A DNA stretch of 24,000 nucleotides from an uncultured Granulosicoccaceae bacterium (GTDB lineage: Bacteria; Pseudomonadota; Gammaproteobacteria; Granulosicoccales; Granulosicoccaceae). The DNA is taken from positions 74,095-98,094 of the forward strand of contig CAZNIS010000012.1 in assembly GCA_964573105.1 (NCBI GenBank), read 5' to 3'. The notes beneath the pieces were generated by a model. It was not told the origin of the DNA. It was given only the letters and a program-made list of their open reading frames with translations, and did not search any database. The translations under genes and the position numbers were made by a program. This document shows positions 1 through 22,436 of this stretch, one piece after another. The first letter of the stretch is position 1; each line of letters starts with the position of its first letter.

Positions 1-129
1 GCGTCAAACGAATCGAGAAATGGAAAATCGGCAAATCGCCGGGTTGACCTGCATTTTATTCAGTCGTTGACCGCGATACCACTTAAAAACAATTCTTCTA
101 TCAATATCAGCCAAAATAGCGCGGAGTAG
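1..129 (+). CDS. 3' end of an OmpA/MotB-like peptidoglycan-binding domain protein (5' part outside the window)
   Basis: Frame 1 is open from base 1 to TAG 127-129. Translation ASNESRNGKSANRRVDLHFIQSLTAIPLKNNSSINISQNSAE contains the A-N-R-R-V-[DE]-[LI] signature that closes OmpA_C-like domains. Only 42 aa are visible, so the call rests on that motif. Confidence 0.55.
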   Translation, partial: ASNESRNGKSANRRVDLHFIQSLTAIPLKNNSSINISQNSAE

Positions 130-131
130 CC

Positions 132-3100
132 ATGTTTTATCTCATATCACAGGTGTTGCTGATTCTTCTGATCGCCACGGTACTAGGCGTACTGATTGGC
201 TGGATTCTACGCAAGATAAAAGCGTTGAGAACAGAAGAAAAACTCAAAGAGCGACTACGCCAGGCCGAGAGCACAATCGACCCGATCAAGCAGGCACTGT
301 CACAGGCACAAGGTGACATCGCCGGTCGCGACAGCAGCATTGCTGCACTGCAGACCAAGATCGATTCGATGTCGAAAGAAGTGCCGCCGCTGAAGGCTGA
401 ACTGAACTCGATCAAATCCGACGCGGGCGAGCAACAGGCTACTATCGCGAGCCTCAAGGCGATGGTCAACGACAAGGAAGACAAACTGTCGAAACTTGCC
501 GACGATCTGAACCAGGAAAAATCTTCCGTACGTGAAGTCGATGCCGCGCTGGCTGACGCAAACGGTCGACGTATCGAACTGGAGAACCGGCTGGCTGAGA
601 CCCGCGTGCAGCTGGAAAACAACGATGCCGCCGCACAGCGTGCACGCGCAGACAGTGCGAAACTGCAAAAAGAAATCAACGCGCTGCAGATCAAGCTGAA
701 CGATGCTGCCAATACCAGCGAATCGAAGCTCAACGAGCTCAAACGCAATCTCGATCAGGAGTCAAAAGGGCATTCAGACGCCTCACAGGCGCTGAAGGCC
801 AAACAGGCTGAAGCGGCGGGTTACCGAGCCGAGATTGAAAAACTCAAAGAGCAGCTGCGCGAGAAAACCACCGACTACAAACTGGCGATGGCTGATCGCA
901 CCGCGCTTGAGCGTCAGCTGGAGACCTTGCAGAACCAACTTGATCGCGCTCAGGAAGCACACGATCGAAAAGTTGCCGATCTGGAAAAAGCACTGGCCGC
1001 AAGACAGGCAATCTCCGATGAGGCCAACCGCCAGCTGACCGCAGGTGCTGCGAACCAGGCACGCCTGGAAGGTGAAATTGACCGTCTTCGCGACAAGCTC
1101 AACACCGGTGAAAAGCAGAACACCGAAGTCGCCTCTGATCGCGACGGACTAAAAAGCGAAATTGCCGCGCTGCAAACACAACTCGAAGAGTCTACCGGTG
1201 CAGTAGAAGCGCAACAGGCTGAAAAGGAAGCCGAGATCGCACAACAACGCGAGTCGATCGACGCACTGAATCGAGATCTGTTGGATGCAAAGAAAGAGCG
1301 CGCCGCATTCAGCGCCGAAGTCAACGACGCCAAAGCCAAACTCAAAGATACTGAAGCCCGCGCTGCCGGTTCGGAGAAAGAGCGAATCGCACTGGAAAAG
1401 CGCATTGATTCGCTTGAGCTCAAGATGCGTGAGCAGGCGAAAGACGGGCAACAGCGCGTCAGCGAGCTGGAAAAGCAGCTCGAGCAAAATGCCGCCGAAC
1501 TGTCACGCGCCGACGGCACCATCAAGTCGAGCGAGCAAAACAAACAGCAACTGGAAGAACGTATCCAGAAGCTGCGCGATGAACTGAACGAAAAAATTAC
1601 TGACGTCAAACTGGCGGCACAGCAGCGCACGACGCTTGAAAAAGAAATCGAGCGACTTCAAGGCGAAGTGGCCACCTTGCAGGAAGCCGTCAAGAAGTTG
1701 CAGGCTGAGCTTGACAACAGCAAAGAGCAACATCAAAAGAAGATATCGGATCTCAAGACTGCGCTGTCTGAGCAGGAAGCGCTGGCGGCAGACGGCAGCA
1801 AAGCGGCCAAGTCTCTCGCTCAGTCCGAGGCACAAAACAAAAAGCAGCAGTCGGAAATCAAAGCCGCTGGCGACAAGATTGCCGAGCTTACCCGCAAGCT
1901 CGACAAGAACAGCAATGAGCTGGAACAGGCTAACTCACAGGTCGCGGCACTGCGTGCAGAGAGCGATAAACTGTCGCAGGCCAAAGCCGGTCTTGAGAAA
2001 GAGACAAAGGCCAACGCCGCTCAGCTGGCAGACGCGAAGAAGCAAAAAGAGCAATTTGCTGACGCTGCGGGCAAGTTGTCCGAGATGACCCAACGCGAAG
2101 AAGCCCTGCGCGAGAAACTCGAGGCGCTGCAGAATCGCCAACAGGAACAGGCGACCGACCTGAAACTGGCCAAATCAGAAGCCGATCGCGCCAATCGAGA
2201 ACTTGAAAACGCGACTAAGAATGCAGCCAAAGCAGAGGAACTGCGTCGCGACAACGAGAAACTGACCACCGCGCGGGACGCTGCCGAGTCAAAGCAACAG
2301 CAAACAGCGGCACAACTCGACGCCTTGCAAAAAGAGGCGAAATCCCTGCGCGCAGACGCTGCCAAACTGGCCGCCCAAAGCACCGAACTTGCGAACGAAA
2401 AAACCGCCGGTGCACAAGCCAAGAAAGCCCTGGGTGCGGCAGAGCAGAAGGTCGCCGAACTCGCCGACAAACTGCAGGCGGCACAACAGCAAAGCACCCA
2501 GGATGCAACCGATGCCAAACTGGCAGTCTCAGCCAACGCAAACATGGAGCGCGAGCTCAATGCACTGCGCAGCGAACTGGCCGACCTGAAAGCACACTAC
2601 GACAACAATCGCGTCAACCTCGAAAAGGACAACACCGATCTGCAAAAGCTCTTGCACGGTGCAACCGGCAACCTGGATCGAGCCAAGTCAGAGCAGTCGA
2701 AGCTGCAGGCCGAGCGCGATCAGTTGGCAGCAGAGGTAGATCAATTGGCGACACGAGTCAAATCGCTTGAATCTGCCGCCGCCAAGGCGGGCACCAGCAA
2801 CGCCGAACTCAAACGCGAGCGCGAAGCACTGGCTGGCGCCAATGAGGCACTGGCGAAACTGGAAGCACAGAATGCCCGCCTGAGTGAAGAAATTCAAAAG
2901 CTCAAGGAAGGCGCTGTCGATGCAGCCACCAACGCAAAAGTGGCCGGTGTGGAAAAATCCACCCTCGAACGCGAAGTGGCCGACCTCAAAGCCAGGCTGC
3001 GCGATACCAGCGGCAGTGGCGAACAGAAGGTCGCCGCCCTGCAGGCAGAGATCGACAAGCTCAACAAGGCCGCCAACGACAACAAAACGCGTGCGGACCG

Positions 3101-3965
3101 TGGCGATGACGCCATGAAAGCACTCGAAAAGCAGCTGCAGCAACAAGCGGCTGCCGATGCCGAGCGCGCCGAGCAACTCACCGCCCAGCTCAAAGCCGAA
3201 AAGGCCGCCCGCGATAAAGCCACAGCGGCACTTGAAAAGAGCGAAAAGCAGGCAGCCCAGTTGCGCGACGATTTGAAAGAGCTCTCGACCGATCACAAGA
3301 TCGCGACCAATCAGAGCAAATCACTGGAGCGTGAGACCGGCAAGCTTGAAAAAGGTCTGCAGACACTAAAAGCCGATCTGGAAAAAGCCGCCGCCACCGC
3401 TCTGCAGAACAGCAACGACGCGCAGAACAAGGCCGCCGAAGTCGATCGCTACAAGCAAATGCTGGAAGCGCGCGAAAAAGAGCTTGAGCTGATGGCCGGC
3501 AAGGTTCCGGCACTGGAGCAGGCGCTGCGCGAGAAAGAAAAAAGCGAGACTCGCCTTGAGAACGAACTCAATGGTCTGCTGTCCGAGCTGAATTCGGTCA
3601 ACGGCAAGATTGAGGCAATGCAGGGCGATATCGCCAAGCGCGAGGCCGACAACGCTGACCTGAAAGGTGACTCTCAGGCTCTGCAGGAGCAACTGCTGCA
3701 ATACCAGGAGATCGACCAGGATCTGCGCAGCCGCATTGCCAAGCTGGAGAAACAGCTGACCGAAGAGCGCAAGGCAGCCGGCAAGAATCTGCTGTCGCGC
3801 ATCATGGAACTCGAAGCCATGCTCTCCGCCGAGCGACACAAGGCCGAATCCATGCGCGACTTTAGTGAGTTCTCCGGCATGTCGACCGTGCAGACCAGCG
3901 TCAAGACTTCTGTCAACGACAGCACTGGTTCACAAACCGACAAGAAAGGCAAAAAAGCAGGCTAG
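132..3965 (+). CDS. Membrane-anchored giant coiled-coil protein (1277 aa), function unknown
   Basis: ATG 132 is preceded by GGAG at 123-126, inside the last codons of the upstream gene. aa 5-25 form a hydrophobic helix (ISQVLLILLIATVLGVLIGWIL) followed by RKIK. The remaining ~1240 aa are E/K/A/L/Q/D-rich, heptad-like, with very few Pro or aromatic residues. The C-terminal tail is Ser/Thr/Lys-rich (TSVKTSVNDSTGSQTDKKGKKAG). No Walker or other catalytic motif seen. An intrinsic terminator follows. Confidence 0.9.
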   Translation: MFYLISQVLLILLIATVLGVLIGWILRKIKALRTEEKLKERLRQAESTIDPIKQALSQAQGDIAGRDSSIAALQTKIDSMSKEVPPLKAELNSIKSDAGEQQATIASLKAMVNDKEDKLSKLADDLNQEKSSVREVDAALADANGRRIELENRLAETRVQLENNDAAAQRARADSAKLQKEINALQIKLNDAANTSESKLNELKRNLDQESKGHSDASQALKAKQAEAAGYRAEIEKLKEQLREKTTDYKLAMADRTALERQLETLQNQLDRAQEAHDRKVADLEKALAARQAISDEANRQLTAGAANQARLEGEIDRLRDKLNTGEKQNTEVASDRDGLKSEIAALQTQLEESTGAVEAQQAEKEAEIAQQRESIDALNRDLLDAKKERAAFSAEVNDAKAKLKDTEARAAGSEKERIALEKRIDSLELKMREQAKDGQQRVSELEKQLEQNAAELSRADGTIKSSEQNKQQLEERIQKLRDELNEKITDVKLAAQQRTTLEKEIERLQGEVATLQEAVKKLQAELDNSKEQHQKKISDLKTALSEQEALAADGSKAAKSLAQSEAQNKKQQSEIKAAGDKIAELTRKLDKNSNELEQANSQVAALRAESDKLSQAKAGLEKETKANAAQLADAKKQKEQFADAAGKLSEMTQREEALREKLEALQNRQQEQATDLKLAKSEADRANRELENATKNAAKAEELRRDNEKLTTARDAAESKQQQTAAQLDALQKEAKSLRADAAKLAAQSTELANEKTAGAQAKKALGAAEQKVAELADKLQAAQQQSTQDATDAKLAVSANANMERELNALRSELADLKAHYDNNRVNLEKDNTDLQKLLHGATGNLDRAKSEQSKLQAERDQLAAEVDQLATRVKSLESAAAKAGTSNAELKREREALAGANEALAKLEAQNARLSEEIQKLKEGAVDAATNAKVAGVEKSTLEREVADLKARLRDTSGSGEQKVAALQAEIDKLNKAANDNKTRADRGDDAMKALEKQLQQQAAADAERAEQLTAQLKAEKAARDKATAALEKSEKQAAQLRDDLKELSTDHKIATNQSKSLERETGKLEKGLQTLKADLEKAAATALQNSNDAQNKAAEVDRYKQMLEAREKELELMAGKVPALEQALREKEKSETRLENELNGLLSELNSVNGKIEAMQGDIAKREADNADLKGDSQALQEQLLQYQEIDQDLRSRIAKLEKQLTEERKAAGKNLLSRIMELEAMLSAERHKAESMRDFSEFSGMSTVQTSVKTSVNDSTGSQTDKKGKKAG

Positions 3966-3980
3966 TTTCTGCGCAATGTC

Positions 3981-4010
3981 GCAACCCGCCCACGGGCGGG
4001 TGCTTTGTTT
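3981..4010 (+). terminator. Rho-independent terminator of the coiled-coil gene
   Basis: Stem ACCCGCC (3984-3990) / GGCGGGT (3995-4001), loop CACG, then T-rich tail GCTTTGTTT. Begins 16 nt after the stop codon. Confidence 0.7.
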
Positions 4011-4042
4011 AGCTCCGATAGTCGATTTACAATCAGCAAGCT

Positions 4043-4081
4043 TGCACCGATCATTCGGATCGGTGCAGCGTCAACCGAATG
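4043..4081 (+). other. Two mutually exclusive hairpins upstream of the mini-ORF
   Basis: Hairpin A is a perfect 10-bp stem, TGCACCGATC (4043-4052) / GATCGGTGCA (4058-4067), loop ATTCG. Hairpin B pairs CATTCGG (4052-4058) with CCGAATG (4075-4081). B uses the loop and first right-arm base of A, so both cannot form together. No U-run after either. Confidence 0.4.
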
Positions 4082-4111
4082 TAACATTGGCTTTGAGGGG
4101 ATGTTTCAGCG

Positions 4112-4261
4112 ATGTCCAGAAGAAGAAAGTCGCGCTTTCGCCTGGGTCGCGCAGGCAGAAGTTACCTGAGCGATGCGATAAAAATGATTGTCACCGGCGC
4201 CGCCACTCTGGCGGTCATTGGGGGCTCGGTGTATCTCGCCATGCTGATCGGCAGCTGGTAG
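4112..4261 (+). CDS. Possible 49-aa small membrane protein (basic N-terminus + one TM helix)
   Basis: Not in the ORF track (below its length cutoff). ATG 4112 to TAG 4259-4261 gives MSRRRKSRFRLGRAGRSYLSDAIKMIVTGAATLAVIGGSVYLAMLIGSW. GAGGGG at 4095-4100 lies 11 nt upstream. Three rare AGA codons and the lack of homology evidence keep confidence low. Confidence 0.35.
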   Translation: MSRRRKSRFRLGRAGRSYLSDAIKMIVTGAATLAVIGGSVYLAMLIGSW

Positions 4262-4273
4262 CGACCGCAGGGC

Positions 4274-6037
4274 TCAATCGGCACGCAGCACGGCCGTCGC
4301 CTCCCCCGCCTCTGCATAGACCAACTCACCATCGGCCCCGCTATTGAGTTCGGCTGCGTTCGCCTCGTCTGTGTCGATGTGCATTTCCAGGCGATATTTA
4401 TCGCTCACCCTGACCAGCACATCGCCGAACGACAGATCTCTCGGCCCACCCGTCACCGCGATCTCAACTACATCCCGATCTGCCACGCCAAACGCTGCGG
4501 CATCGTCCGGATGCATGTGAATGTGTCGCCGTGCGCAGATCAGCCCTTGCTGTAAATGCACCGTGCCGGCCGGCCCCTCCAGGGTTATCGGTGCCGAGCC
4601 TTCTACCTTACCCGAATCGCGAATCGGCGCATCGACGCCGAGCCTGAACTCATCGGTGCGGGCCACTTCTATCTGATCGACACTGCGAAGCGGGCCGAGC
4701 AGGCGCACCCCGTCAATGCGGTTGCGCGGACCGATCAGGTTCACTTTCTCTTCACAGGCATATTGCCCGGGCTGGGAGATATCCTTGTAGTGCGTCGGCT
4801 TTGCCCCTTTGCCGAATAATTTTTCAAAAGTCTCTGCAGTCAGGTGCAAATGTCTGGCGCTGACCGCGATCGGGATACCGCGCGCCGGCGTCGGTTTTGC
4901 CTGTCGCTCAACCGTGTTGGCCGACTGGCGCGCGATCATCAGTTCCTCGTCGGTCTTCACCACGACTGCTGCGACGCGCGAGCCGCGCTGCGAAATGATG
5001 GCCCGGTTGTGCTCTGTGCTGAGTTCGACATCGTGATTGGCATCGTCGTCGAGCAACAGACCCAGAAATTCCAGCCGCTGCAAAATGCGTCGCCGCATGG
5101 TGGCACTGTTTTCACCGATACCACCGGTGAACACCACGGCATCCAGGCCGCCCATCACAGCGGCGTAGCTGCCAATATACTTGCGCGCGCGATGGGCAAA
5201 AACATTGATCGCAAGCCGCGACGCATCGTGGCCCTGCTCTGCCTTGTCTTCGAGATCGCGCAGATCGTTACCGACCCCGGACAGCCCCGCAAGCCCACTT
5301 TGACGATTCAATAGATCATCGAGCTGCTGAATGGTGTAATCGCCACTGCGCAGCAGGTTGAGCATCGCACCGGCATCGATATCGCCCGCGCGGGTGCCCA
5401 TCACCAGCCCTTCAAGCGGCGTCGCCCCCATACTGGTCTCGGTGGATTTGCCGTACTCCACCGCGCAGGCACTGGCACCATTACCCAGGTGCAGCGTCAC
5501 TATGCGCAAATCTGCGATTGAGCTGCCGAGCGCCTCGGCGGCCTCACCTGCGACGTAACGATGCGAGGTGCCGTGAAAGCCAAAGCGGCGAATACGATGG
5601 CTGTTGGCAACGTCCTGTGGAATGGCATAAGTCTGTGCACGTCGTGGCATGCGGGCGTGAAATGCCGTGTCGAATACGGCGACCTGCGGCACCTTTGGCC
5701 ATACGTGCATCGCCTGTCGTATACCCTCGAGGTTAAACGGGTTATGTAGCGGCGCATCGGCTGCGCGTGCATCTATCTCGGCGATGACGGTGTCATCGAT
5801 CAATGTCGCATCGATAAATCGATCGCCACCATGTACCACCCGGTGGCCCACGACATCCACCTGGTGATCCGCGACCGCCTGACACAGATGTTCCAGCGCG
5901 GCGGCGTGAGTGGCAAACTCCCCGTCCGGATCACCAATTCGCGTGCACTTGCCGACGACGATGCGCGCATCGGTACGCAGGTCGATCAGTTGATACTTGA
6001 CACTCGAAGATCCGCAATTGACTACCAGCACATGCAT
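4274..6037 (-). CDS. ackA: Fusion protein: acetate/propionate kinase (AckA, aa 1-372) + PduL-type phosphate acyltransferase (aa ~387-587)
   Basis: N-terminal VLVVNCGSSSVKY, FHGTSHRY, FTGGIGEN and the C-terminal-type TDEELMIAR are acetate kinase hallmarks. After linker NTVERQAKPTPAR, the rest matches PduL along its length: IPIAVSARHLHL, QPGQYA, LLGPLRSVDQIEVARTD, ARRHIHMHP, LEMHIDTDEANAA. The PduL domain is roughly nt 4277-4879. Confidence 0.9.
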   Translation of the reverse strand: MHVLVVNCGSSSVKYQLIDLRTDARIVVGKCTRIGDPDGEFATHAAALEHLCQAVADHQVDVVGHRVVHGGDRFIDATLIDDTVIAEIDARAADAPLHNPFNLEGIRQAMHVWPKVPQVAVFDTAFHARMPRRAQTYAIPQDVANSHRIRRFGFHGTSHRYVAGEAAEALGSSIADLRIVTLHLGNGASACAVEYGKSTETSMGATPLEGLVMGTRAGDIDAGAMLNLLRSGDYTIQQLDDLLNRQSGLAGLSGVGNDLRDLEDKAEQGHDASRLAINVFAHRARKYIGSYAAVMGGLDAVVFTGGIGENSATMRRRILQRLEFLGLLLDDDANHDVELSTEHNRAIISQRGSRVAAVVVKTDEELMIARQSANTVERQAKPTPARGIPIAVSARHLHLTAETFEKLFGKGAKPTHYKDISQPGQYACEEKVNLIGPRNRIDGVRLLGPLRSVDQIEVARTDEFRLGVDAPIRDSGKVEGSAPITLEGPAGTVHLQQGLICARRHIHMHPDDAAAFGVADRDVVEIAVTGGPRDLSFGDVLVRVSDKYRLEMHIDTDEANAAELNSGADGELVYAEAGEATAVLRAD

Positions 6038-8730: not shown

Positions 8731-9585
8731 ATGAGCGCACTCCACCCTCACCTGCGAATGCTGATGCGCCGGGTCCTGCGACCCGTCGCAAGCCTGCTCA
8801 TGCGCAATGGCATCGCCTTCGCCGACTTTGCAGACGTCGCACGAAAGGTGTTCGTCGAGGTCGCCGAGGATGAATTCGCCATTCCCGGGCGCAAACAGTC
8901 AGTCTCGCGCGTATCAGTGCTGACCGGCATCAACCGCAAAGAGGTCAAGCGCTTGCTGGCCGAGCGAGAAGCACCGGATGCCGAACGAATTGACCAGGCA
9001 ACCACTGCCAGTAGCAATAATCGCGCAGCGCGAGTCATCAGTGCCTGGCTTCGCGAACCGGACTATCAGGATGACAAAGGCAACCCTGCGCTGCTCAGTT
9101 GGGGCAAGAACGAATCAAACGGATTCGAAAGTCTGGTCAAGCATCACAGCGGGGATATTCCGGCGCGCGCCATACTCGATGAACTCAAACGCGTCGGCGC
9201 GGTGAGCATGCCGGACGAATCGACGGTAAAACTGCTGGCCCATGGCTATGTGCCCAGCGCCAGCAACGACGAACTATTGAAAATCTCGGCGCAGAGTGCG
9301 GGTGATCTGCTCGACACCATCGAGCACAATCTGGCTGCCAACGAGCCACTGTCACGCCTGCAGCTCAGCGTTGCCTACGATGATCTGCCAGCCCAATCGG
9401 TCGAGCTCTTCAGGCAACTGAGCACAGAAAAGGGACGCGAGCTACTCGTGTACCTGGATCAGTTTCTGGCCACTCAGGATCGTGGCAGCAATCCGTCGGT
9501 CAAGGGCAGCGGGCGTTACCGCGCCGGGCTTGGCGTGTACTACTTTGAAGAAGATCTTGGCGAGGACCATGCTGATGGCAATTAA
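8731..9585 (+). CDS. Cytoplasmic protein with an N-terminal helix-turn-helix-like segment, uncharacterised family (putative regulator)
   Basis: 284-aa ORF with no signal peptide. The segment QSVSRVSVLTGINRKEVKRLL looks like an HTH. The N-terminal pattern LRPVASLLMRNGIAFADFADVARKVFVEVAEDEFAIPGRKQ resembles conserved hypothetical proteobacterial proteins, but I cannot name the family with certainty. Confidence 0.75.
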   Translation: MSALHPHLRMLMRRVLRPVASLLMRNGIAFADFADVARKVFVEVAEDEFAIPGRKQSVSRVSVLTGINRKEVKRLLAEREAPDAERIDQATTASSNNRAARVISAWLREPDYQDDKGNPALLSWGKNESNGFESLVKHHSGDIPARAILDELKRVGAVSMPDESTVKLLAHGYVPSASNDELLKISAQSAGDLLDTIEHNLAANEPLSRLQLSVAYDDLPAQSVELFRQLSTEKGRELLVYLDQFLATQDRGSNPSVKGSGRYRAGLGVYYFEEDLGEDHADGN

Positions 9586-10951
9586 TCACTGTGGTCGCAG
9601 GTGCGCAGTCTGGGTGCTGGCATTGTTTGCGATCGCGCTGCATAGCTGTTCCGGAGGCATCTCCGGCACCGGCGATGGCGGCCCGATCATCGTGGTCACC
9701 AACACAGACCTCATCGAGTCGAGTTCAACTATCGGCACGGGTGACGGTGGCATCGACGGAACTACCGATGGCACCACCGACGGCACCGCGCAGACAGACA
9801 GCCCCGCTTCGCTAACGCTGCCAGTGCAAATCTACTATGCGTTTCCGGCACCACTGATCGCACTGCCCGACAGCGCAACGCCTGACACCTCGGTGTACGC
9901 TGCACTGCGCGAGCAATTCACCGCAGCGACAGATATTTTATTGGACGCACAAGTCTGGGTAGATCTCGTCAGCGCGCAACTGCCAGACACCACGAGTGCA
10001 TGCTTCGCCGATACCAGCTGCATCAGCAGTCAGCTCAGTACCGGTTATCTCTACTCCGCAGACACGCTGCAGAACGATTTAACGCGCCGGCTGAATTCGA
10101 TCGACCCGCTGTTACCGGAGGATACGCAACTGGCGTTTGAAAACTCGATTCGCGAACAGCTCAATGCCAACCTGAACACCGTGATTGACATTGGCGTCGA
10201 CAACGCCCTGTCTGTCACCGGCGATCAGCACAACATTCGACTGCAGTCAGGTGATGCCACGCTCGATCTGACCTGGCGCCTGGACAATGGGGTCACAGTC
10301 ATTCGTTACACCACACCCGCGATCACCCTGCAGGCCAGGCACCAAACAGATGCCAACCGTTTCACTCTGCGCTTCTACAACAGACAATCCACCTCTGTGC
10401 TCGCAGCTGCTTTTGAATCGGTTGACGGTGGCAGGCTGTTTGAAGGAGATCTGCATCGGGCAGGTAACACGCCTATGCAACATTACTTTCGCGGGTTCAG
10501 TAGCCAGCAGGGTGGTACGCTGATTGCGCGCGATCCAAACCGCGACGCCACACAATCTCTGTCACGCGAGCGGTATTTGTCCAGCGGACAGTTAACTTCA
10601 CAGCAAGTGTGCGATCGTTGCGAGGTGTCGGAGAACTGGCTGGAACAACTCGATAGCGCCACGCCTGATGACGCACAATACGTAGCCTTTGAAGAACGGT
10701 TTGGCGGATTCGAGCAGAGCATTGCCGATGACATCTCGCTGAGCAATCTCGACGCAACCATTGACGAATGGGTAGTCACCAACAACGAAAGTGAGCAGTC
10801 ACCCAATCTCAATGCCGCCTGCCACGGACAACGCGTTGGCGACGCGCTACGTAATATCTGCTGGACGCTCGCGCTCGATCCGGAGCAGGCCCGCACCTAT
10901 CGCGAGCAGCTTCAACCCAATGGCGACTTGAGCTATCAGTTACTTGATTAA
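9569..10951 (+). CDS. Orphan lipoprotein (~460 aa), no recognisable domain
   Basis: In-frame ATGs at 9569 and 9575, with GAGG at 9562-9565, give MLMAINHCGRRCAVWVLALFAIALHSC-SGG (signal peptide plus lipobox-like LHSC). The start overlaps the upstream gene's 3' end by 17 nt. The ORF-track start 9482 would add a non-signal extension inside the upstream gene. Gly/Asp/Thr-rich linker (GTGDGGIDGTTDGTTDGT). Confidence 0.7.
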   Translation: MLMAINHCGRRCAVWVLALFAIALHSCSGGISGTGDGGPIIVVTNTDLIESSSTIGTGDGGIDGTTDGTTDGTAQTDSPASLTLPVQIYYAFPAPLIALPDSATPDTSVYAALREQFTAATDILLDAQVWVDLVSAQLPDTTSACFADTSCISSQLSTGYLYSADTLQNDLTRRLNSIDPLLPEDTQLAFENSIREQLNANLNTVIDIGVDNALSVTGDQHNIRLQSGDATLDLTWRLDNGVTVIRYTTPAITLQARHQTDANRFTLRFYNRQSTSVLAAAFESVDGGRLFEGDLHRAGNTPMQHYFRGFSSQQGGTLIARDPNRDATQSLSRERYLSSGQLTSQQVCDRCEVSENWLEQLDSATPDDAQYVAFEERFGGFEQSIADDISLSNLDATIDEWVVTNNESEQSPNLNAACHGQRVGDALRNICWTLALDPEQARTYREQLQPNGDLSYQLLD

Positions 10952-12733: not shown

Positions 12734-14251
12734 TCAACGCGGGTTTAATTGTCCGTAGAGTCGTGCAAATCGCACACCCAGTTCACGCAGGCCGACAGCT
12801 GAAAAGTGTGACCCGTCAGTGTCGTCTTCACGCGCGGGCAGATCGGTGGCCTGCACGCAACCACTCAGCGGATCCGCATCGCGGTTCAGTGCCATCAAGT
12901 GGCGATTCACCCCCACTGCACGACGGGTTTCACCACAGATAAACACTGTCCGTCCCGGTGAGGCCCACGGCTCTGAACGAAAGTTTTTTATCAGTGCCTG
13001 CAATTTGATCGGATAGTAATTTCGGTAGTCGGGAGAGCTTGCAGGAATACCACTGGCCAGTGGGTCCGAGGTACCGTGGAACTGCCAGTCGGTCTCGCCC
13101 TGATGCCACAGAATGCCATCAATGGTGTCGCGATGGGGCAGCGCATCGAGTGCCGCCTGCACCTTATCGCTCACCTCGCGATAAAACGGGCCATGGCGAT
13201 CCCAGTGTGATATTCCCTTGCCCGGTGCAGAGGCTACGATAAAGGCCGGCACCCTGCCCGAGCCGGACTGAGCCAGCGCTTTGCCAAAGTGAAACGCGAA
13301 ATTGTTATAGGGACGGCGGTTCGGATTCTCCTTCGAAAAATTTCCCGGATGTCCGTTGCGATCCCATACCTGATGCAGATCTGCCGTTTGCCAGCCGGCA
13401 CTGGTCCAGGCAAAGACGCGCTGATCCGGCTGATCGAGGCCCGGGTCGTAGGCGGTCATCGAACCCAGCACGTTCGATTGCCCGGTCACCAGTATCACGT
13501 CGGTAATGTCGGCGAGCGTCAGCGCTTTTTGCGCTCCAGCGCCGCCGACGGCTTGCGAGACGCTGCGATCGGAGGTGACGAGACAGGTCTTGCCGCGCTG
13601 CCAGCCGATGCCGTCGCCGTCTGGATCCATATCAGCCCGCTCACACACGGCGACGCCCGCATCGCTGGCACACAGCGCGTTATCAACCCAGCCAATCCCG
13701 TCGCGATCCGGGTCCTGGCGTGGCGAGGTACAGCGTCGCAGACCGGGTGCGGTAACGCGAGCAGGCTCCGTCGCCGACGGCGTCACCGGTTTATTGGTGG
13801 TGCGCTGCACCATGCAACTGGCGTTGTTCTCCCAGCCGTAGCCATCGCCGTCCGGATCGCTGTCATCGCGTGTACAAGGCGGGTGCACACCTGTGGTGGC
13901 GGGTGCGGGTTTTTGATCCGCAACAGCGCCAGACGGCATTCGGCAGGAACGATTGTCTTCCCAGCCCCAGCCATCGCCGTCCGGGTCAGAGTTGGTCTGG
14001 CAGGTCGCGTGTGTCGGGGCCGAGTCCGCTGCACCCCCTGCGACAATACACGACGCCTGATTTTCCCAGCCCCAGCCATCGCCATCCGGATCAGAGGCCG
14101 CCGACTGGCAGACTGGGGTGGCGGCAGCGGCCGCCTCGATAAACGGTCCGATAACAAGACCCGCCAGCAAGGCGAGTGCGCTTCGTGAAAGAACGACATT
14201 GGGGATTGGCAAAGCGATTATTCCGATGCGCTGACGGGGACATCCCGTCAC
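12734..14251 (-). CDS. Secreted SASA/SGNH-type esterase (sialate O-acetylesterase-like), paralog 1, with five N-terminal Cys-bracketed DPDGDG repeats
   Basis: The ORF-track start is GTG 14251. An in-frame TTG 13 codons downstream (TTG CCA ATC, nt ~14212) is also possible. Signal peptide ALALLAGLVIGPFIEAAAAA. Esterase domain motifs: VILVTGQSNVLG, ILWHQGETDW, FICGET, DGSHF. Confidence 0.8.
   Translation of the reverse strand: MTGCPRQRIGIIALPIPNVVLSRSALALLAGLVIGPFIEAAAAATPVCQSAASDPDGDGWGWENQASCIVAGGAADSAPTHATCQTNSDPDGDGWGWEDNRSCRMPSGAVADQKPAPATTGVHPPCTRDDSDPDGDGYGWENNASCMVQRTTNKPVTPSATEPARVTAPGLRRCTSPRQDPDRDGIGWVDNALCASDAGVAVCERADMDPDGDGIGWQRGKTCLVTSDRSVSQAVGGAGAQKALTLADITDVILVTGQSNVLGSMTAYDPGLDQPDQRVFAWTSAGWQTADLHQVWDRNGHPGNFSKENPNRRPYNNFAFHFGKALAQSGSGRVPAFIVASAPGKGISHWDRHGPFYREVSDKVQAALDALPHRDTIDGILWHQGETDWQFHGTSDPLASGIPASSPDYRNYYPIKLQALIKNFRSEPWASPGRTVFICGETRRAVGVNRHLMALNRDADPLSGCVQATDLPAREDDTDGSHFSAVGLRELGVRFARLYGQLNPR
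13583..14110 (-). repeat. Five protein-level repeats C-x4-5-DPD[GR]DG-[WYI]-GW-x-[NDR]-x3-C within paralog 1
   Basis: Cys pairs at aa 48/68, 84/103, 126/146, 174/194 and 203/223. Each brackets DPDGDGWGWEN, DPDGDGWGWED, DPDGDGYGWEN, DPDRDGIGWVD or DPDGDGIGWQR. The plus strand shows the recurring CCAGCC..ATCGCC.TCCGGATC pattern near 13600, 13690, 13832, 13962 and 14066. Confidence 0.85.
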
Positions 14252-14307
14252 TCAGAATACCTGACAAATTGCCTGAATTGCTTTGATGCGCCTGAAGGGA
14301 ACTTGAA

Positions 14308-14323
14308 CAACGGTAAACCGTTG
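14308..14323. promoter_or_regulatory. Perfect 7-2-7 palindrome CAACGGT-AA-ACCGTTG in the paralog 2 / paralog 1 spacer
   Basis: Located 6 nt downstream of the paralog 2 stop (14330) and ~57-72 nt upstream of the paralog 1 start. The 2-nt loop is too tight for a normal RNA hairpin, so a dimeric protein-binding site is more likely. Confidence 0.3.
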
Positions 14324-14329
14324 ACCCAA

Positions 14330-15343
14330 TCAGTCAACGAGGTTGAGATAAGCCTCAGCGTAGCTTTGACCGAGCGCTCGCAACCCCTCGGCTGTAAAGT
14401 GCACATATTCTGGCGCATCGTAAGTTGGCAAACCCTCACCACTGACGCAGGCCGTCCACGGATCGTTGTCGGTATTGAGCGCCATCAATCGGCTGTTAAT
14501 CGGTGCCTGCGCGGTCTCACCACAGATGAATGGCTTGCCGTTGTCAAACCAGTTTTCGCTGCGGAAATTAGAGATCAGGGCATACAGCTTATCGCTGTAA
14601 TATTCGCTGCCAACCATGACACCACCAAGGTCTGGATCGCTCGAGCCATTGATCACCCAGTCGGTCTCGCCCTGATGCCACAGAATGCCGTCAAAGGTGC
14701 TCTTGTGCGGCAACTCATTAAGTGCTGCCACCGCCTTGTTGCTGACCTGATTATAGAAATAGGTGCCATAGTCCCAGTGACTGATGCCCTCACCAGGTGC
14801 CGTCGCCAGCACAATGCCGACCACCCGATCGCTGTCGGCAGCCACCAGCTGTTTGCCAAAATGCAGGCCGAAGTTGTTGTGCGGATCGCCGTTCGGGTCG
14901 GTGCGCGGATTCCAGCCAAGATCCCACACCTGACGCAGACTGGCGCGCTGCCAGCCCTCGTCTGTCCAGGCATAGAAACGATCGACTGGCGCATCCAGCA
15001 CAGGATCGAAGTCAGTTTCAGCGCCGAGTGCATTTGACTGCCCGGTAATCAGCACCAGATCGGTGATACCGGATGGCATATCGACGACTGGTTTCGAATC
15101 GGGATCTTCGGGATCGGTGTTGTCACCCCCAACGACGATGACGGTATTACCGTCTTCCTCATCGCCACCCTGTGCCGCCGATGTATCGACCTCGGGCTCA
15201 GGTTGCGGCTGATTGCCAGACTCACCGCCAACCACAATGACAGTGCGGTCCTCGTCGCCATCGCCAGACGCGCACGCGGTTAGCACGGCCAACGCAACGG
15301 TTGTCAACGCTATACGCCAAGTCTGACTGAGTCTACCTTTCAC
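14330..15343 (-). CDS. SASA/SGNH-type esterase lipoprotein, paralog 2
   Basis: GTG start 15343 with GGGGG ~10 nt upstream. Signal plus lipobox: ALAVLTAC-ASG. Acidic linker with two TVIVVGG strands. Motifs: LVLITGQSNALG, ILWHQGETDW, FICGET, EYVHF. Confidence 0.85.
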   Translation of the reverse strand: MKGRLSQTWRIALTTVALAVLTACASGDGDEDRTVIVVGGESGNQPQPEPEVDTSAAQGGDEEDGNTVIVVGGDNTDPEDPDSKPVVDMPSGITDLVLITGQSNALGAETDFDPVLDAPVDRFYAWTDEGWQRASLRQVWDLGWNPRTDPNGDPHNNFGLHFGKQLVAADSDRVVGIVLATAPGEGISHWDYGTYFYNQVSNKAVAALNELPHKSTFDGILWHQGETDWVINGSSDPDLGGVMVGSEYYSDKLYALISNFRSENWFDNGKPFICGETAQAPINSRLMALNTDNDPWTACVSGEGLPTYDAPEYVHFTAEGLRALGQSYAEAYLNLVD

Positions 15344-15625
15344 CTAAACGAACCCCCGGCCTGTATCTGGACACCAAGTGTCTCAATTGCGTTACACACC
15401 GACCGCGAGCCGTTTCAGGTTTCAGCGTTTTATGAGCACTGGCATGGCGAGTACTGTCGACCACGCCCGATTTGGCAGTCAGGAGTTAACAAGCCAGTAT
15501 TCGGCGTCCCCCGGGGGTTCTGAAGACGCATTTCAGGTTGTTCGCGAACTTATCCGCAGTATCCGGGCGCGTCAGGCGACGCGCCAGGGCCTTCCCGTCA
15601 GGAAATCACGAGATCGCAGGCAGTT

Positions 15626-16618
15626 TCAGGATCCGGGCGGACGAGGCTGCATGGTGATGTACTCCCAGGCGTAATTGCTGCCGATTCTGCGCAGCCCTTC
15701 AGCCGAAAAGTGGATGCCATCACCCAGCGAAGGATAGCCTTCGCCCTCAACACAGGCGGTCCAGTCATCGCCATCGGTATTGAGCCGATTGAGACGGTTA
15801 TTGACCGGCAGGCCAATCGTCTCGCCGCAGATGAAGGGCTTTTCGTAGCCGTACCAGCTCTCGTTGCGAAAGTTGGTGATCAGCTGGTTGAGCTTGGTGG
15901 TGTAGTAGTCCGAATCGGCCGCATCGGACTCGCCCTGATGCCACAGGATTCCGTCGAATGAGGATTTGTGCGGTATCTGATTCAAGGCGTTCAGCGCCTT
16001 GTTGCGTATCTGACCAAAGAACTCACCATCGAGATCCCAGTGCGCGATTTCGCGCCCGGGCGCGGTTATCAGCACGATGGCGACACGGCGATCCGTCCGG
16101 TTTTCCGCGATGGTCTTGCCAAAGTGCATGCCGAAGTTATTGAACGGCTCGCGATCGGGATCCGAGTCAGAGAAATTGCCCGGATGGGTCAGATCCCAGA
16201 ATTGGTGCAAATCGGCGATGCGCCAGCCCTGATCGGTGAACGCATAGACACGACTGTTGGGCCGGTCCAGATCCTCATCGAAGGTGGTTGACGCACCCAG
16301 CGCATTTGACTGCCCGGTGATCATCACAAGATCGGTGATCAAATCCAGCCGAACATCATCGGGAATGAAGAAGTCGTCCGGCTCGAATGGTTGTTCGGCC
16401 GGTTCAGGTTCCGGCGTGCCCTGGTCGGGGTTATCGCCGCCGGCACCACCGACGACCACCACCGTACCGGAGTCTTCGTCATCGTCTTCTGCGCTACCGC
16501 CGGCACAGCCATGCAAAAACAGCGCGGCCAGCAACAGCAGTACGCCAACGCATCTATGGACGCGCCATTCTGACAATCGAGTGTCATTTATTATCGGGAA
16601 ACTTTGCACTAGAGCCAT
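15626..16618 (-). CDS. SASA/SGNH-type esterase lipoprotein, paralog 3
   Basis: Start uncertain: ORF-track TTG 16687, ATG 16618 (chosen) or TTG 16576; none has a clear SD. Signal plus lipobox: VLLLLAALFLHGC-AGG. Acidic linker with TVVVVGG. Motifs: LVMITGQSNALG, ILWHQGESD, FICGET, DGIHF. Confidence 0.8.
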   Translation of the reverse strand: MALVQSFPIINDTRLSEWRVHRCVGVLLLLAALFLHGCAGGSAEDDDEDSGTVVVVGGAGGDNPDQGTPEPEPAEQPFEPDDFFIPDDVRLDLITDLVMITGQSNALGASTTFDEDLDRPNSRVYAFTDQGWRIADLHQFWDLTHPGNFSDSDPDREPFNNFGMHFGKTIAENRTDRRVAIVLITAPGREIAHWDLDGEFFGQIRNKALNALNQIPHKSSFDGILWHQGESDAADSDYYTTKLNQLITNFRNESWYGYEKPFICGETIGLPVNNRLNRLNTDGDDWTACVEGEGYPSLGDGIHFSAEGLRRIGSNYAWEYITMQPRPPGS

Positions 16619-16791
16619 CCGTTTGCAGCCATGCAGCTGGCTGCACAGCGCTATCAGCAGGGACTCTCTTTGAACTAGTGAGAGCAAGGGGGTTCAGTAA
16701 AAACCCGCATTATATGCAAGCCCCACCTGCAAAACCGGCGAATTTTCCTAACTGTAGGCTAGTGCACTCTTAAGATTTTCACTCATCCTGG

Positions 16792-16818
16792 CAGGCGCGG
16801 CCAAGTGCCGCGCGCCTG
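16792..16818 (-). terminator. GC-rich hairpin downstream of paralog 4 (weak terminator candidate)
   Basis: Perfect 8-bp stem CAGGCGCG (16792-16799) / CGCGCCTG (16811-16818) with an 11-nt loop, 16 nt after the stop at 16834. No U-run follows on the minus strand, so it is not a canonical intrinsic terminator. Confidence 0.3.
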
Positions 16819-16833
16819 GATTGCCTTGCGCGC

Positions 16834-17916
16834 TCAACGTGGAAGTTGCCACCACATCTGATTGTACAAATCGGCATAGCGCTGCCCCATGGTGCGCAGG
16901 GCGGTGGCCAGAAAGTGGGCGCCATCTTCGTGCGTAGGCAGCCCGGCGGCAGCGATACAGCCGGTCCACGGGTCCCCATCGTGGTTTAACGCCATCAGCT
17001 GCGCGTTCACCGCAAACTGCGACGTTTCACCGCAGATGAAGGGTCGGTCAGCCGAGAACCAGCTCTCTGCGCGAAAATTGGCAACCAGCGAATTCAACGC
17101 CTGCGCGTAGGCTTCACCACCATTTGCATCGGATTCACCCTGATGCCACAGAATGCCATCCAGCTGGTTTTTGGTCGGATGTTCAGCCAGCGCGGCACGC
17201 ACCTTTCGATCGACCGCGCGATAGAAATCGCCATCCCGCTGCCAGTGAGCAATCGGCTGCCCGGGCGCAGTTGCCAACACAAATCCAAACACTCTGTTAG
17301 TGCCAGCGGTCAGTTGAACCATTCGCTTGCCATAGTGCAACGCCAGATTGTTCGACGGCGGTTCACTGCCATCATTGCCCGGATGCCAGCCCAGATCCCA
17401 GATCTGGTGCAAGTCGGCAATCTGCCAGCCACGATCGGTATAGGCCAGTACTCTCGAATCCGGGGAATCAAGGCCCGCATCAAAGCTCGTCCCCGCACCC
17501 AGCGCATTCGACTGTCCGGTCAACAGCACCAGGTCGGTGATATCTTCAAGCTGATGTGGCCCATTGATCGGCGTTGACCAAACCACAGGCTCTGTCACTT
17601 CGGGCTCGGCAGGTGTCTCGATAGTGAACTCGTCCTGCTCCAGCGTTTCCGCCGGTGGTTCTGTCTGCGCCAGCGCTGCATCGGGTTCTGCGGCGGCCGG
17701 GTCATTGACGGGCTCGAAAGCATCGTCATCAACCTGAGGCAGACCGGTAGCGGCGGTTTCAGGTTCGCTTGCCGACGGCTGGGTGACAGAGGGCGTGTCC
17801 GCCGGTGGGGTGACAGGCTCAAGTGAGGCACTGCTGCTGCAGCCGGCGATCACAGCCGCCAGTGATACCGCCGCCAGCAGTCGACCCGATCTGGTCAATT
17901 CAAAGCCAACCCACAC
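16834..17916 (-). CDS. SASA/SGNH-type esterase lipoprotein, paralog 4
   Basis: GTG 17916 with GGGAGAG (revcomp of 17925-17931) 7 nt upstream. Signal plus lipobox: LAAVIAGC-SSS. ~100-aa Pro/Glu/Ala/Thr-rich linker. Motifs: LVLLTGQSNALG, ILWHQGESD, FICGET, DGAHF. Confidence 0.85.
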   Translation of the reverse strand: MWVGFELTRSGRLLAAVSLAAVIAGCSSSASLEPVTPPADTPSVTQPSASEPETAATGLPQVDDDAFEPVNDPAAAEPDAALAQTEPPAETLEQDEFTIETPAEPEVTEPVVWSTPINGPHQLEDITDLVLLTGQSNALGAGTSFDAGLDSPDSRVLAYTDRGWQIADLHQIWDLGWHPGNDGSEPPSNNLALHYGKRMVQLTAGTNRVFGFVLATAPGQPIAHWQRDGDFYRAVDRKVRAALAEHPTKNQLDGILWHQGESDANGGEAYAQALNSLVANFRAESWFSADRPFICGETSQFAVNAQLMALNHDGDPWTGCIAAAGLPTHEDGAHFLATALRTMGQRYADLYNQMWWQLPR

Positions 17917-19442: not shown

Positions 19443-20123
19443 CTAGTCTAATTTGAGCTCAACCGGTTCACCAGCCGGATCTGCACTCAGATCGACGCCC
19501 GCGATGCTAGCAAGCTCCAGCGCGATTTCATCTGAGAGCTGACCCACCGCGGTGCTGTAGGCTGCCACCATCGGTGAGTAACCCCGCCCGGTAACCGGGA
19601 TGCGGAATTCTGATATCTGAGTTTTCAGCAATTTGGCAGGGCGATCGCCGGTCAGGATCTGCCAGCGCACCTGCAAAAACACCTGCCGACGCAGCGCGCC
19701 CAGCATTTGAATCACATCGAGCCTGACCTGGTAGTCAATCTGATTGCGCAGCCACGGATAGGGATAGAGTTTGTCCAGTGACAGTTGCTCGGCGATGTTT
19801 GCCATCATCACGCGGGTAATGTTTTCCCGCAGCGGCTCGCTCCAGCGATGGTATTCGGCCACCAGCAACTGATTGTTGTCCATCGGTGTGACGATGTTCG
19901 GCCGGTTAACCGTCTCCGGGATTGTCACCGGCCCAAGCCCAAGCGCAATCTCTTTCAGGTTCGCGATCGGCTGATCACGCGTACTGCTGGAATCGGGAGT
20001 GATCACGTAATAATCAGGCAACGGCGTGTTGATGCAGCCGGCCAACATCCACGCCAGTGCAAGTGCCAGCCACACGCGCGCGCTCTGCCACGCAGCAATA
20101 CCGGTTGAAACTCTATTTGCCAA
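19443..20123 (-). CDS. pqiC: PqiC-like lipoprotein (ABC-type transport auxiliary component)
   Basis: TTG start overlaps the pqiB 3' end by 11 nt. Lipobox ALAWMLAGC-INT. Size (226 aa) and position directly after pqiB fit PqiC/DUF330. Confidence 0.75.
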   Translation of the reverse strand: MANRVSTGIAAWQSARVWLALALAWMLAGCINTPLPDYYVITPDSSSTRDQPIANLKEIALGLGPVTIPETVNRPNIVTPMDNNQLLVAEYHRWSEPLRENITRVMMANIAEQLSLDKLYPYPWLRNQIDYQVRLDVIQMLGALRRQVFLQVRWQILTGDRPAKLLKTQISEFRIPVTGRGYSPMVAAYSTAVGQLSDEIALELASIAGVDLSADPAGEPVELKLD

Positions 20124-21810: not shown

Positions 21811-21830
21811 CTGAAAGACATATGCAATCG

Positions 21831-22436
21831 CTAATCCCAGATTAGACGAGGATCGAGCGAAAGCGCTGAAAGCATGGTAAATATTACCGTTGCCCCGAAC
21901 GCCATCACACCAATGCCCGGGTCAATCTGGGCGAACGAGCCGATCTGCACCAGCGCCGCCAGGATCGCCACCACAAACACATCGATCATCGACCAGCGGC
22001 CGATGAATTCCGTCACCCGAAACAGCCGGGCGCGGTCGAGTCTGCGCTCCTCTGATCCGCGCTGAATCGAGATCAGCAGCCAGGAGATGGCGAAAAATTT
22101 CAGCAATGGCACCACGATACTGGCGACAAACACCACCAGCGCCACCGGATAGGATTTCAGCTCCACCAGTACCAGGATGCCGCTCAAGATCGTGTTCGGC
22201 TCCGACACACCAAATACTGAGGTGTGCATAATCGGATAGAAATTGGCAGGAAAATAGGCGATCACCCCGGCGATCAGCCAGGCCCAGGATCGCTGCACAC
22301 TCAACGGTTTGCGCGAATGCAGCACCGACTGGCACAGCGAGCAGCGCGACACCGCGAACAGATTGTGGGTCTCCAACTCAGACAAATTCCCACAGGCTTC
22401 GCACGACACCAGGCCGCTCTCGCGCGCACTCTTCAT
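21831..22436 (-). CDS. pqiA: PqiA-domain membrane protein, second half-size gene
   Basis: 201 aa. CEACG...CSLCQ zinc-ribbon-like pair followed by 4 hydrophobic helices. Start ATG 22434-22436 overlaps the upstream stop (ATGA overlap, 22433-22436). Confidence 0.8.
   Translation of the reverse strand: MKSARESGLVSCEACGNLSELETHNLFAVSRCSLCQSVLHSRKPLSVQRSWAWLIAGVIAYFPANFYPIMHTSVFGVSEPNTILSGILVLVELKSYPVALVVFVASIVVPLLKFFAISWLLISIQRGSEERRLDRARLFRVTEFIGRWSMIDVFVVAILAALVQIGSFAQIDPGIGVMAFGATVIFTMLSALSLDPRLIWD

Follow-up and report, generated by a model that had tools for sequence, protein, structure and literature searches.

What could be the function of a gene pair in which a protein of 1277 aa, most of it coiled coil, is encoded immediately downstream of an OmpA-like peptidoglycan-binding protein? 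Bacteria are known to link wall, membrane and cytoplasmic organisation via single hub proteins or energised stators; in the present pair, the roles of wall anchor and cytoplasmic arm fall to two distinct proteins that are inherited together. The pair lies at the start of a 24,000-nt stretch of DNA (the window) from an uncultured Granulosicoccaceae bacterium (assembly GCA_964573105.1, contig CAZNIS010000012.1, positions 74,095–98,094 of the forward strand), and we refer to the long protein as the giant and to the OmpA-like protein as its partner. We found that the pair is real, conserved, uncharacterised and restricted to one lineage, and that its architecture is a variant of the envelope-anchored coiled-coil scaffold or tether. 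As judged from sequence and gene order, the two proteins would form a tether from the envelope into the cytoplasm, a reading to which we assign a probability of about 0.4. A first-pass annotation, made from the letters of the window, had already suggested an envelope-anchored tether or cytoskeletal element, and this is still the best reading.

A two-gene operon

The partner gene enters the window with its last 42 codons and stop codon (positions 1–129, plus strand; frame-1 translation ...GKSANRRVDLHF...NSAE before the stop). In the bases gcGGAGtagccATG, a Shine-Dalgarno sequence GGAG at 123–126 (plus strand) lies within the final codons of the partner gene and 5 nt ahead of the ATG of the giant at 132, and the stop codon TAG occupies 127–129, which leaves an intergenic gap of 2 nt; these signals, pointed out in the first-pass annotation, are read directly from the sequence. 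The gene of the giant covers 132–3965 of the plus strand, as supported by the list of open reading frames (ORFs), the translation and homologues. It is followed on the same strand by an intrinsic terminator at 3984–4010, in which a hairpin at 3984–4001, with a seven-pair stem containing 6 GC pairs, precedes a T-run. We recovered the full partner gene, which encodes 356 aa (L001/L002:8928-9998), from a 146.6-kb metagenome scaffold (L002) that differs from the window by 2 mismatches in 13,965 nt. Upstream of it, where it had been proposed to look for a MotA/ExbB/TolQ-like gene, there is instead a divergently transcribed Zn-alcohol dehydrogenase gene. Because a terminator follows the giant and a divergent gene lies upstream of the partner, the unit is an operon of these two genes closed by the terminator. 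The extent of 1–4261 first given to it was too long, since the sequence at 4112–4261 is a separate 49-aa ORF.

The pair is inherited as a unit within one lineage

A word-indexed search of 5.8 billion proteins returned four relatives. One genome per GTDB species was scanned as well, which gave 28 loci, each of them in an entry titled as a Granulosicoccaceae or 'Chromatiales bacterium' metagenome-assembled genome (MAG). When a profile of the C-terminal module was run against all 1.84 billion representatives, 64 matches were obtained, of which ~35 were true members by their motifs and the remainder generic coiled coils. Where a source organism is given for a family member, it is a Granulosicoccaceae MAG in almost every case. 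A metagenome scan with the partner alignment, the patterns of which fell in the generic OmpA core, gave unrelated OmpA proteins at 79 of 80 loci, the sole family member being L036. Members have in common an N-terminal transmembrane (TM) helix of the form M[FLIT]YL[IV].Q that ends in GW, a C-terminal helix with RI.E[LI]E.ML.AE, a basic tail of ~30 aa and an OmpA-like gene directly upstream. In the databases the giants are labelled 'hypothetical protein' (OED39267.1) or, spuriously, 'nucleoprotein TPR', and our literature search found no paper describing the giant/OmpA-like pair.

The tight pairing expected from the window was borne out, and it recurs across genomes: in all 27 readable TM-bearing members (24 plus L035, L036 and L116) the gene immediately ahead, in the same orientation, is the OmpA-like one, at gaps of 2–28 nt, and they include two paralogous chromosomal loci and a third clade. 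At locus 1, which holds the window, the pair lies between the alcohol dehydrogenase gene and an ackA-PTAC gene, the giants have 633–1277 aa, and the string GCGGAGTA[GA] with the 2-nt gap is kept in 14 of 14 orthologues. Locus 2 is marked by genes for an ABC transporter, a NUDIX protein, MlaA, a GbsR/MarR-like protein and a small DUF protein next to the pair; its giants have 420–1695 aa, and its gaps of 23–28 nt contain a GGAG-type site (GGAG, GGGAG or GGGG). The divergent clade (L035 and L036) has a different neighbourhood, gaps of 12–15 nt and giants of ~1240 and ~1760 aa. Locus 1 and locus 2 occur together in no fewer than six MAGs, and partner identity goes down to ~29%. Thus the pair was duplicated as a unit, and its two genes have stayed together down to that level of partner identity. 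Homologues that mostly lack an OmpA-like neighbour would have refuted the first-pass annotation, and on this point it is upheld.

The giant is predicted to be anchored N-out with its rod in the cytoplasm

The giant begins with MFYLISQVLLILLIATVLGVLIGWILRKIK and ends with ...SVKTSVNDSTGSQTDKKGKKAG. We called topology and coils from hydropathy, charge and heptad statistics. On the Kyte-Doolittle scale the best window of 19 residues reaches 2.98 and no other exceeds 0.52, so the single N-terminal TM helix at aa ~4–26 (positions 141–209, plus strand) is the sole hydrophobic segment, in agreement with the first-pass annotation. There is no charge ahead of this helix and there are seven K/R among the next 15 residues; in the 24 homologues scored, the segment ahead is likewise free of charge and the 15 residues behind hold 2–7 K/R. 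By the positive-inside rule, this charge distribution places ~1,250 residues in the cytoplasm, as had been suggested for the window and as now holds family-wide. The TM helix and its flank are highly conserved, residues M1, Y3, L4, Q7, V8, L9, L12, A15, L21, G23, W24, L26 and R27 being invariant, and a conserved membrane-proximal coiled-coil segment follows at aa 27–80 (positions 210–371, plus strand; alignment A1). A hidden Markov model (HMM) of the N-terminal 75 aa detects even the divergent members L036 (1e-26) and L116 (1.6e-28).

The same data bear on whether the rod could instead lie in the periplasm or at the surface, as TolA or an adhesin does, and work with the OmpA-like protein outside the cytoplasm. 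Such an arrangement would have both proteins in one compartment, and long helical periplasmic proteins such as TolA do exist. However, none of the 24 members scored has basic residues ahead of the TM helix and all have 2–7 K/R behind it, rods of 50–250 nm are too long for the periplasm, and forms of the family without the TM helix (below) have no signal peptide; we consider a periplasmic rod highly improbable. TolA itself, which has an N-in TM helix with a basic cytoplasmic N-terminus, a periplasmic helical domain and TolQR partners, was rejected as a relative, the charge pattern of the giant being reversed and TolQR genes being absent. In its layout the giant resembles TipN, EzrA, ZapG/YhcB and ZipA, where a short or absent external N-terminus and one TM helix are followed by a cytoplasmic coiled coil. 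Unlike the giant, those proteins have no dedicated OmpA-type partner gene, are of 130–900 aa and have other conserved ends, and the Pfam model of EzrA did not match the giant. For ZapG/YhcB, the N-terminal TM helix followed by a cytoplasmic coiled coil is described in PMC8163987.

The partner is a predicted wall-binding protein of the periplasm

The partner, which starts with MRSTNVALLFALLAITYLIGTTLYV-DRIEQDI, consists of an N-terminal TM helix or signal anchor, a BON domain (Pfam PF04972, aa 27–91, 33.7 bits against a cut-off of 27, 4.5e-8), a middle region of ~140 aa and a C-terminal OmpA-type (OmpA-C) peptidoglycan-binding domain (PF00691, aa 234–327, 54.6 bits against a cut-off of 27.2, 1.5e-14). 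The BON match is stronger, at 49.2 bits, in the paralogue L017. The middle region had no family match, and no domain match supported the two additional BON-like repeats at which the secondary structure in a poor model had hinted. The OmpA-C domain aligns with solved domains, for example those of Pal, YiaD and Rv0899, and the peptidoglycan-binding core H-[ST]-D..G...YN..LS..RA, followed by NRR(V), is kept in 18 homologues, in which H268, D270, N278, L281, S282, R285 and N326-R327-R328 are invariant. The partner has both features that define an OmpA-C protein, the domain match above cut-off and the D and R typical of a diaminopimelate-binding core, and wall binding is predicted. The order of N-terminal TM helix, BON and OmpA-C-like domain is that of mycobacterial ArfA (Rv0899), and the OmpA domains align (PDB 2l26, 2lca); the OmpA part alone aligns, however, and the partner has the extra middle of ~140 aa. 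The gene of ArfA lies with genes for small membrane proteins and is not known to be accompanied by one for a coiled-coil giant.

The hydrophobic stretch of the partner has one Arg ahead of it and acidic residues behind it, and this pattern would place the body of the protein in the periplasm. The opposite charge patterns of giant and partner hold across the whole family. Column identity is 0.56–0.58 in the TM and juxtamembrane part, 0.64–0.66 in the peptidoglycan-binding core and 0.25–0.4 in the middle region. A TM helix about as conserved as the OmpA core fits a retained, interacting helix, unlike a cleaved signal peptide.

The first-pass annotation had also considered the cytoplasmic arm of a MotB/OmpA-type stator-like complex. 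The OmpA domain of the partner does match ZorB and MotB models, through that domain, and an OmpA-like wall anchor is common to the pair, Zorya ZorAB and MotAB/PomAB. Moreover, ZorA is known to have a long cytoplasmic coiled-coil tail (bioRxiv 10.1101/2023.12.18.572097), which would be a precedent for an arm in an ion-driven complex of the MotB/ExbD/TolR or Zorya type. In those systems, however, the tails are on a MotA-like ion channel, and no MotA/ExbB/TolQ/ZorA-like gene was present at any locus with called genes, nor were ZorC and ZorD. The giant has one TM helix and no channel. The TM consensus of the partner, MRL..A.L..LLG.VYW.GAT, holds not one Asp or Glu in 25 sequences, the giant matched no ZorA model in PADLOC, and the loci are syntenic chromosomal genes with no defence island. 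A stator arm is therefore scarcely credible. On the same grounds, membership of the partner in the MotB/ExbD/TolR group was rejected (no adjacent channel gene, no Asp/Glu in the TM helix), as was identity of the giant with ZorA, the ZorB matches of the partner coming through the OmpA domain only. A defence-system reading was dropped too, since PADLOC gave coil and OmpA noise only. The stator, periplasmic-rod and defence readings are contradicted by these data.

The rod is segmented and its length varies between conserved ends

Between the membrane-proximal segment and the distal module, a variable coiled-coil rod occupies positions 372–3692 (plus strand), as called from heptad statistics and composition. 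The giant consists of 17% Ala, 12% Leu, 12% Glu, 11% Lys and 8.5% Gln; it contains 4 Pro and lacks Cys. Of residues 31–1250, 84% fall in 28-residue windows in which the hydrophobic contrast at a/d positions exceeds the 95th percentile of shuffles. The coiled coil claimed for the window is thus real as a heptad signal, but the rod is broken into ~14 segments by 15 register changes, and is not one unbroken heptad run. The continuous rod of 150–180 nm proposed before is not supported, the coil being segmented, and this length is an upper bound.

Rod length ranges from 420 to 1760 aa across the family, and changes by internal and tandem duplication. Within the giant of the window there is an old duplication (aa ~190–310 against ~430–560, score 120 against at most 70 in shuffles), which was found by a windowed Smith-Waterman scan with shuffles; BLAST self-comparison gave no off-diagonal matches, and the window has no DNA-level tandem repeat. 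In the divergent clade, a 411-nt unit is present in 3.7 tandem copies in L036, and the protein repeats of L035 are near-identical. Since both ends are conserved and the rod between them varies from 420 to 1760 aa, a tether is favoured over a fixed ruler. The idea of a ruler, which the first-pass annotation had entertained, is not supported, because even orthologues at one locus differ in length (633–1277 aa at locus 1, 420–1695 aa at locus 2). Locus-2 giants of one subgroup (L006:8001-11582, P0004; also L031 and L032) carry large internal repeats of ~170 aa that are not plain coil; motifs such as FR.GDLE..DP, SGNS.FR..DF and DEDTDGKYR..DFANG.P hint that small inserts in the rod are folded or bind ions.

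Neither Pfam, NCBIfam nor PADLOC had a family above threshold for the giant, so its lack of a characterised family, stated in the first-pass annotation, stands; the sub-threshold matches were to the coil parts of SMC, Rad50, myosin tail, JetC and LmuB. The judgement that it has no ATPase heads and is not SMC/MukB-like also stands. SMC, MukB and Rad50 were rejected as relatives because there was no SMC_N or AAA match, and the NCBIfam SMC model reached 121 bits against a cut-off of 567, in coil regions only.

A segmented rod rich in coiled coil would also suit a membrane skeleton. In this reading the giant, its paralogue and the TM-less forms co-polymerise via their conserved rod ends, and beneath the inner membrane they build a layer that resembles intermediate filaments; pinned to the wall by the partner, this layer would influence cell shape or mechanics in the manner of crescentin-type proteins. 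Conservation is strongest at both rod ends, as in intermediate-filament rods, one end module is common to several paralogues, and there are faint precomputed matches to the crescentin rod family PF19220. Like the giant, crescentin, FilP and Scy have long segmented coiled-coil rods and lineage-restricted sequences. However, these proteins are not known to have a TM helix or a wall-binding partner, the scores for PF19220 and PF00038 are far under the cut-off (for example 25.8 bits against 100), and a length spread of up to four-fold among orthologous rods would be awkward for a regular lattice. We hold a membrane skeleton, one of the two main rivals of the tether, to be possible but not probable.

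The distal end carries a conserved helix and a basic tail

Beyond the rod, a conserved C-terminal helix module runs from aa ~1188 to 1244 (LRSRIAKLEKQL..ERKAAGKNLLSRIMELEAMLSAERHKAE; positions 3693–3863, plus strand; alignments A1, A2 and A6), with I1202, L1205, R1223, I1224, E1226, E1228, M1230, L1231, A1233 and E1234 invariant. For the last 110 aa of the giant, AlphaFold2 with a 12-sequence alignment predicted a single continuous helix to ~aa 1251, with a predicted local distance difference test (pLDDT) score of 80. The protein then ends in a disordered Ser/Thr-rich basic tail (positions 3864–3962, plus strand; pLDDT <50), as the first-pass annotation had noted; it has 33 aa and ends in KKGKKAG. 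In the 24 members scored, the tails span 27–34 aa, are rich in Ser and Thr and have net charges between +1 and +7, in contrast to the rods, most of which are net acidic; AAN[ST] is frequent in the tails, and their ends often read K/R-K-x-S/G. As a putative degron, the combination of AAN and a basic C-terminus recalls the SspB-binding part of the ssrA tag and MuA-type ClpX signals, a likeness on which we do not rely.

A short linear motif of this kind (AAN[ST], then the basic end) fits protein docking, and could indicate that the pair is a polar or landmark hub, a wall-fixed scaffold that recruits clients to one site as a two-gene equivalent of FimV/HubP/PodJ or TipN. FimV, HubP and PodJ have a periplasmic wall-binding domain, a TM helix and a cytoplasmic scaffold, and TipN has an N-terminal TM helix and a long cytoplasmic coil. 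The logic is the same as here, in that a periplasmic peptidoglycan-binding module, membrane anchors and a large cytoplasmic scaffold tie the wall to cytoplasmic organisation. The known hubs are, however, single polypeptides with LysM or PG_binding_1, whereas here there are two proteins, each with its own TM helix, and the wall part is BON plus OmpA-C. Moreover, we found no sequence relationship to FimV, HubP, PodJ or TipN in Pfam or NCBIfam, and no client genes are linked to the pair, its neighbours being housekeeping genes. The pair belongs neither with these hubs nor with EzrA or ZapG, and it has none of their defining sequence features. We regard a hub function, the other main rival, as about as likely as the membrane skeleton.

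Relatives of the distal module

Paralogues without a TM helix, of 152–297 aa, share the C-terminal helix and tail of the giant and have neither an OmpA-like neighbour nor a signal peptide. The alignment of their conserved N-terminus to a segment inside the rod of the giant is weak (hhalign probability 41%), and they resemble truncated rods more than bearers of a novel domain. Searched as profiles against the PDB, the C-terminal module and the N-terminus of these paralogues gave only chance coiled-coil matches (E >=0.035). As a curiosity and not as evidence, two of them (L019:5893-6765 and L023:5485-6378) are located between mnmE and mnmG-rsmG-parA-parB, neighbours that we identified by eye from N-terminal sequences; this region is usually near the chromosomal origin.

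One member of the family has an additional domain at its distal end. On a 2.9-kb contig (L116/P0031), the partner gene is followed after a gap of 21 nt by the family TM helix and rod, the conserved C-terminal helix and then a helix-hairpin-helix (HhH) domain of ~75 aa; the rod carries a frameshift, probably a sequencing error. This domain matches the C-terminal extension of NuoE (1.4e-20) and the C-terminal region of the PhaH model (4.3e-13), as well as C-terminal extensions of ribosomal proteins L21 and S2 and the PDB chains 9wqv_a and 8yy9_O. The HhH domain of Caulobacter PhaH is reported to bind DNA non-specifically, and PhaM, PhaF and AlgP to do so through Lys-rich tails (2025 review, PMC13052382). 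Each of these proteins is attached to a structure by one end and contacts DNA with the other (PMC13052382), a layout that may be shared by the pair. Protein-O of the D. shibae RC-LH1 complex (8yy9), which has the same type of domain as L116, combines a TM domain, a long flexible loop or linker and an HhH-type domain of obscure function (PMC12079452). Unlike the PhaH-type tethers, however, the giant of the window has a short basic tail and no HhH domain (motif GIGP...RI.RD.WI.QA, found within the family in L116/P0031 only), it is anchored at the membrane and wall and not at a granule, and its DNA binding is putative.

A gene arrangement of similar kind occurs in four syntenic high-GC metagenome loci, probably alphaproteobacterial (L049, L050, L054 and L111, positions ~3000–4700 of each). 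Directly after purD, three genes in a row encode a TM-BON-like-OmpA protein, a TM peptide of 28 aa, and a protein with a TM helix, an acidic/Pro-rich linker of ~100 aa and an HhH domain of the NuoE-extension/PhaH/protein-O type. In the OmpA domain of these loci, as in that of the family partner, a Cys pair lies ahead of the core. The TM helices of the giant and of the high-GC HhH proteins look alike by eye; homology between them was dropped as an explanation after the HMM comparison (E >10). As an analogy from one further lineage, the triplet may be a small-scale counterpart of the pair. The case that the distal end of anchored spacers contacts DNA is suggestive but thin. An unrelated protein of 2613 aa (L117:6001-13842, P0042, GCA_039028975.1) has an N-terminal TM helix ending ...GFLLGWLL, a very long coiled coil and, close to the C-terminus, two HHH_5 domains, with no OmpA neighbour; the TM-coil-HhH architecture thus recurs outside the family.

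A proposed wall-anchored cytoplasmic tether

In the tether that we favour, the TM helices of partner and giant would associate in the inner membrane, and the OmpA domain would fix the complex, and hence the rod, to the immobile sacculus. The rod would be a parallel dimer or higher oligomer, with a reach of up to ~175 nm here (1185 aa × 0.1485 nm) and of ~50–250 nm across the family. We prefer a parallel rod over a folded-back hairpin because a tandem duplication lengthens a parallel coil without disturbing it, but leaves one arm of a hairpin unpaired. The rod could then act as an adjustable spacer that grows or shrinks through duplication of coil modules. The conserved distal helix and basic tail would be the working end, which docks on a cytoplasmic target, nucleoid DNA or another polyanion being the likeliest; within the tether reading, roughly half of the probability falls to such a target. 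The TM-less paralogues, with the same distal module, might compete with the anchored rods for this target or form a bridge to it.

Several observations weigh against this tether or against parts of it. Many partner homologues have VGA|T behind the hydrophobic stretch, and the partner might have an N-terminal signal peptide that is cleaved off. An AlphaFold2 model of the partner, built on an alignment with three close sequences, reached a pLDDT of 36.6 and is unusable. Both the oligomeric state and the parallel order of the rod are assumed. At the distal end, some locus-2 tails carry a charge of merely +1 to +3, and the conserved AAN[ST] points to a specific protein partner over plain electrostatics. 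The DNA idea is thin, resting on one short frameshifted contig (L116) and a domain called obscure in PMC12079452, and the family N-terminal HMM misses the TM-HhH proteins of the high-GC loci. The most far-reaching reading seems unlikely to us. In it, the pair holds the nucleoid or other large polyanionic cargo by a transmembrane tether riveted to the wall, with a reach tuned between species by tandem coil duplication. The pair would then be one example of a broader class, so far unrecognised, in which the gene of an OmpA-type anchor is paired with that of an N-out TM/spacer/DNA-binding-end protein, and this class would include the high-GC TM-linker-HhH proteins.

To our knowledge, the arm of the giant is among the longest membrane-anchored coiled coils in bacteria. 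The natural length series from 420 to 1760 aa with fixed ends is unusually clean for asking whether spacer length affects positioning. Should the distal end bind DNA, the pair would connect sacculus and nucleoid physically and directly, independently of transcription. A practical limit is that the family is restricted to a poorly cultured marine group associated with macroalgae.

Neighbouring genes in the window

The 49-aa ORF after the operon terminator (4112–4261, plus strand; MSRRRKSRFRLGRAGRSY...LAMLIGSW) has a basic N-terminus, a C-terminal hydrophobic helix and no Pfam match. It is preceded by a promoter-like site at 4026–4054 and by GAGGGG ~10 nt ahead of its ATG, and it was called as a gene on three contigs; conservation extends to the two closest relatives only (L007 and L008). 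Convergent to the giant, a gene at 4274–6037 (minus strand) encodes a 587-aa fusion of acetate kinase (aa 3–370) and a PduL-type phosphate acyltransferase (aa 389–564), which is present with 587–589 aa in all locus-1 neighbourhoods; from its domains, it would be an AckA-Pta pathway in one polypeptide, with PduL replacing Pta.

Further downstream, an ORF of up to 489 aa with no Pfam match follows a DUF6502 gene (9482–10951, plus strand). It was called with 409 aa in L001 and 458 aa in L002, contigs that are otherwise near-identical, and L001 has an indel relative to the window in this area. Four consecutive genes for SASA-family carbohydrate esterases, the first with three CBM_10 modules, occupy 12734–17916 (minus strand), and this cluster fits a polysaccharide-degrading, alga-associated lifestyle. 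A Pqi-type operon for lipid transport lies at 19443–23134 (minus strand); its PqiA is divided between two ORFs (21831–22436 and 22433–23134), followed by a PqiB with three MlaD domains and a PqiC-like lipoprotein.

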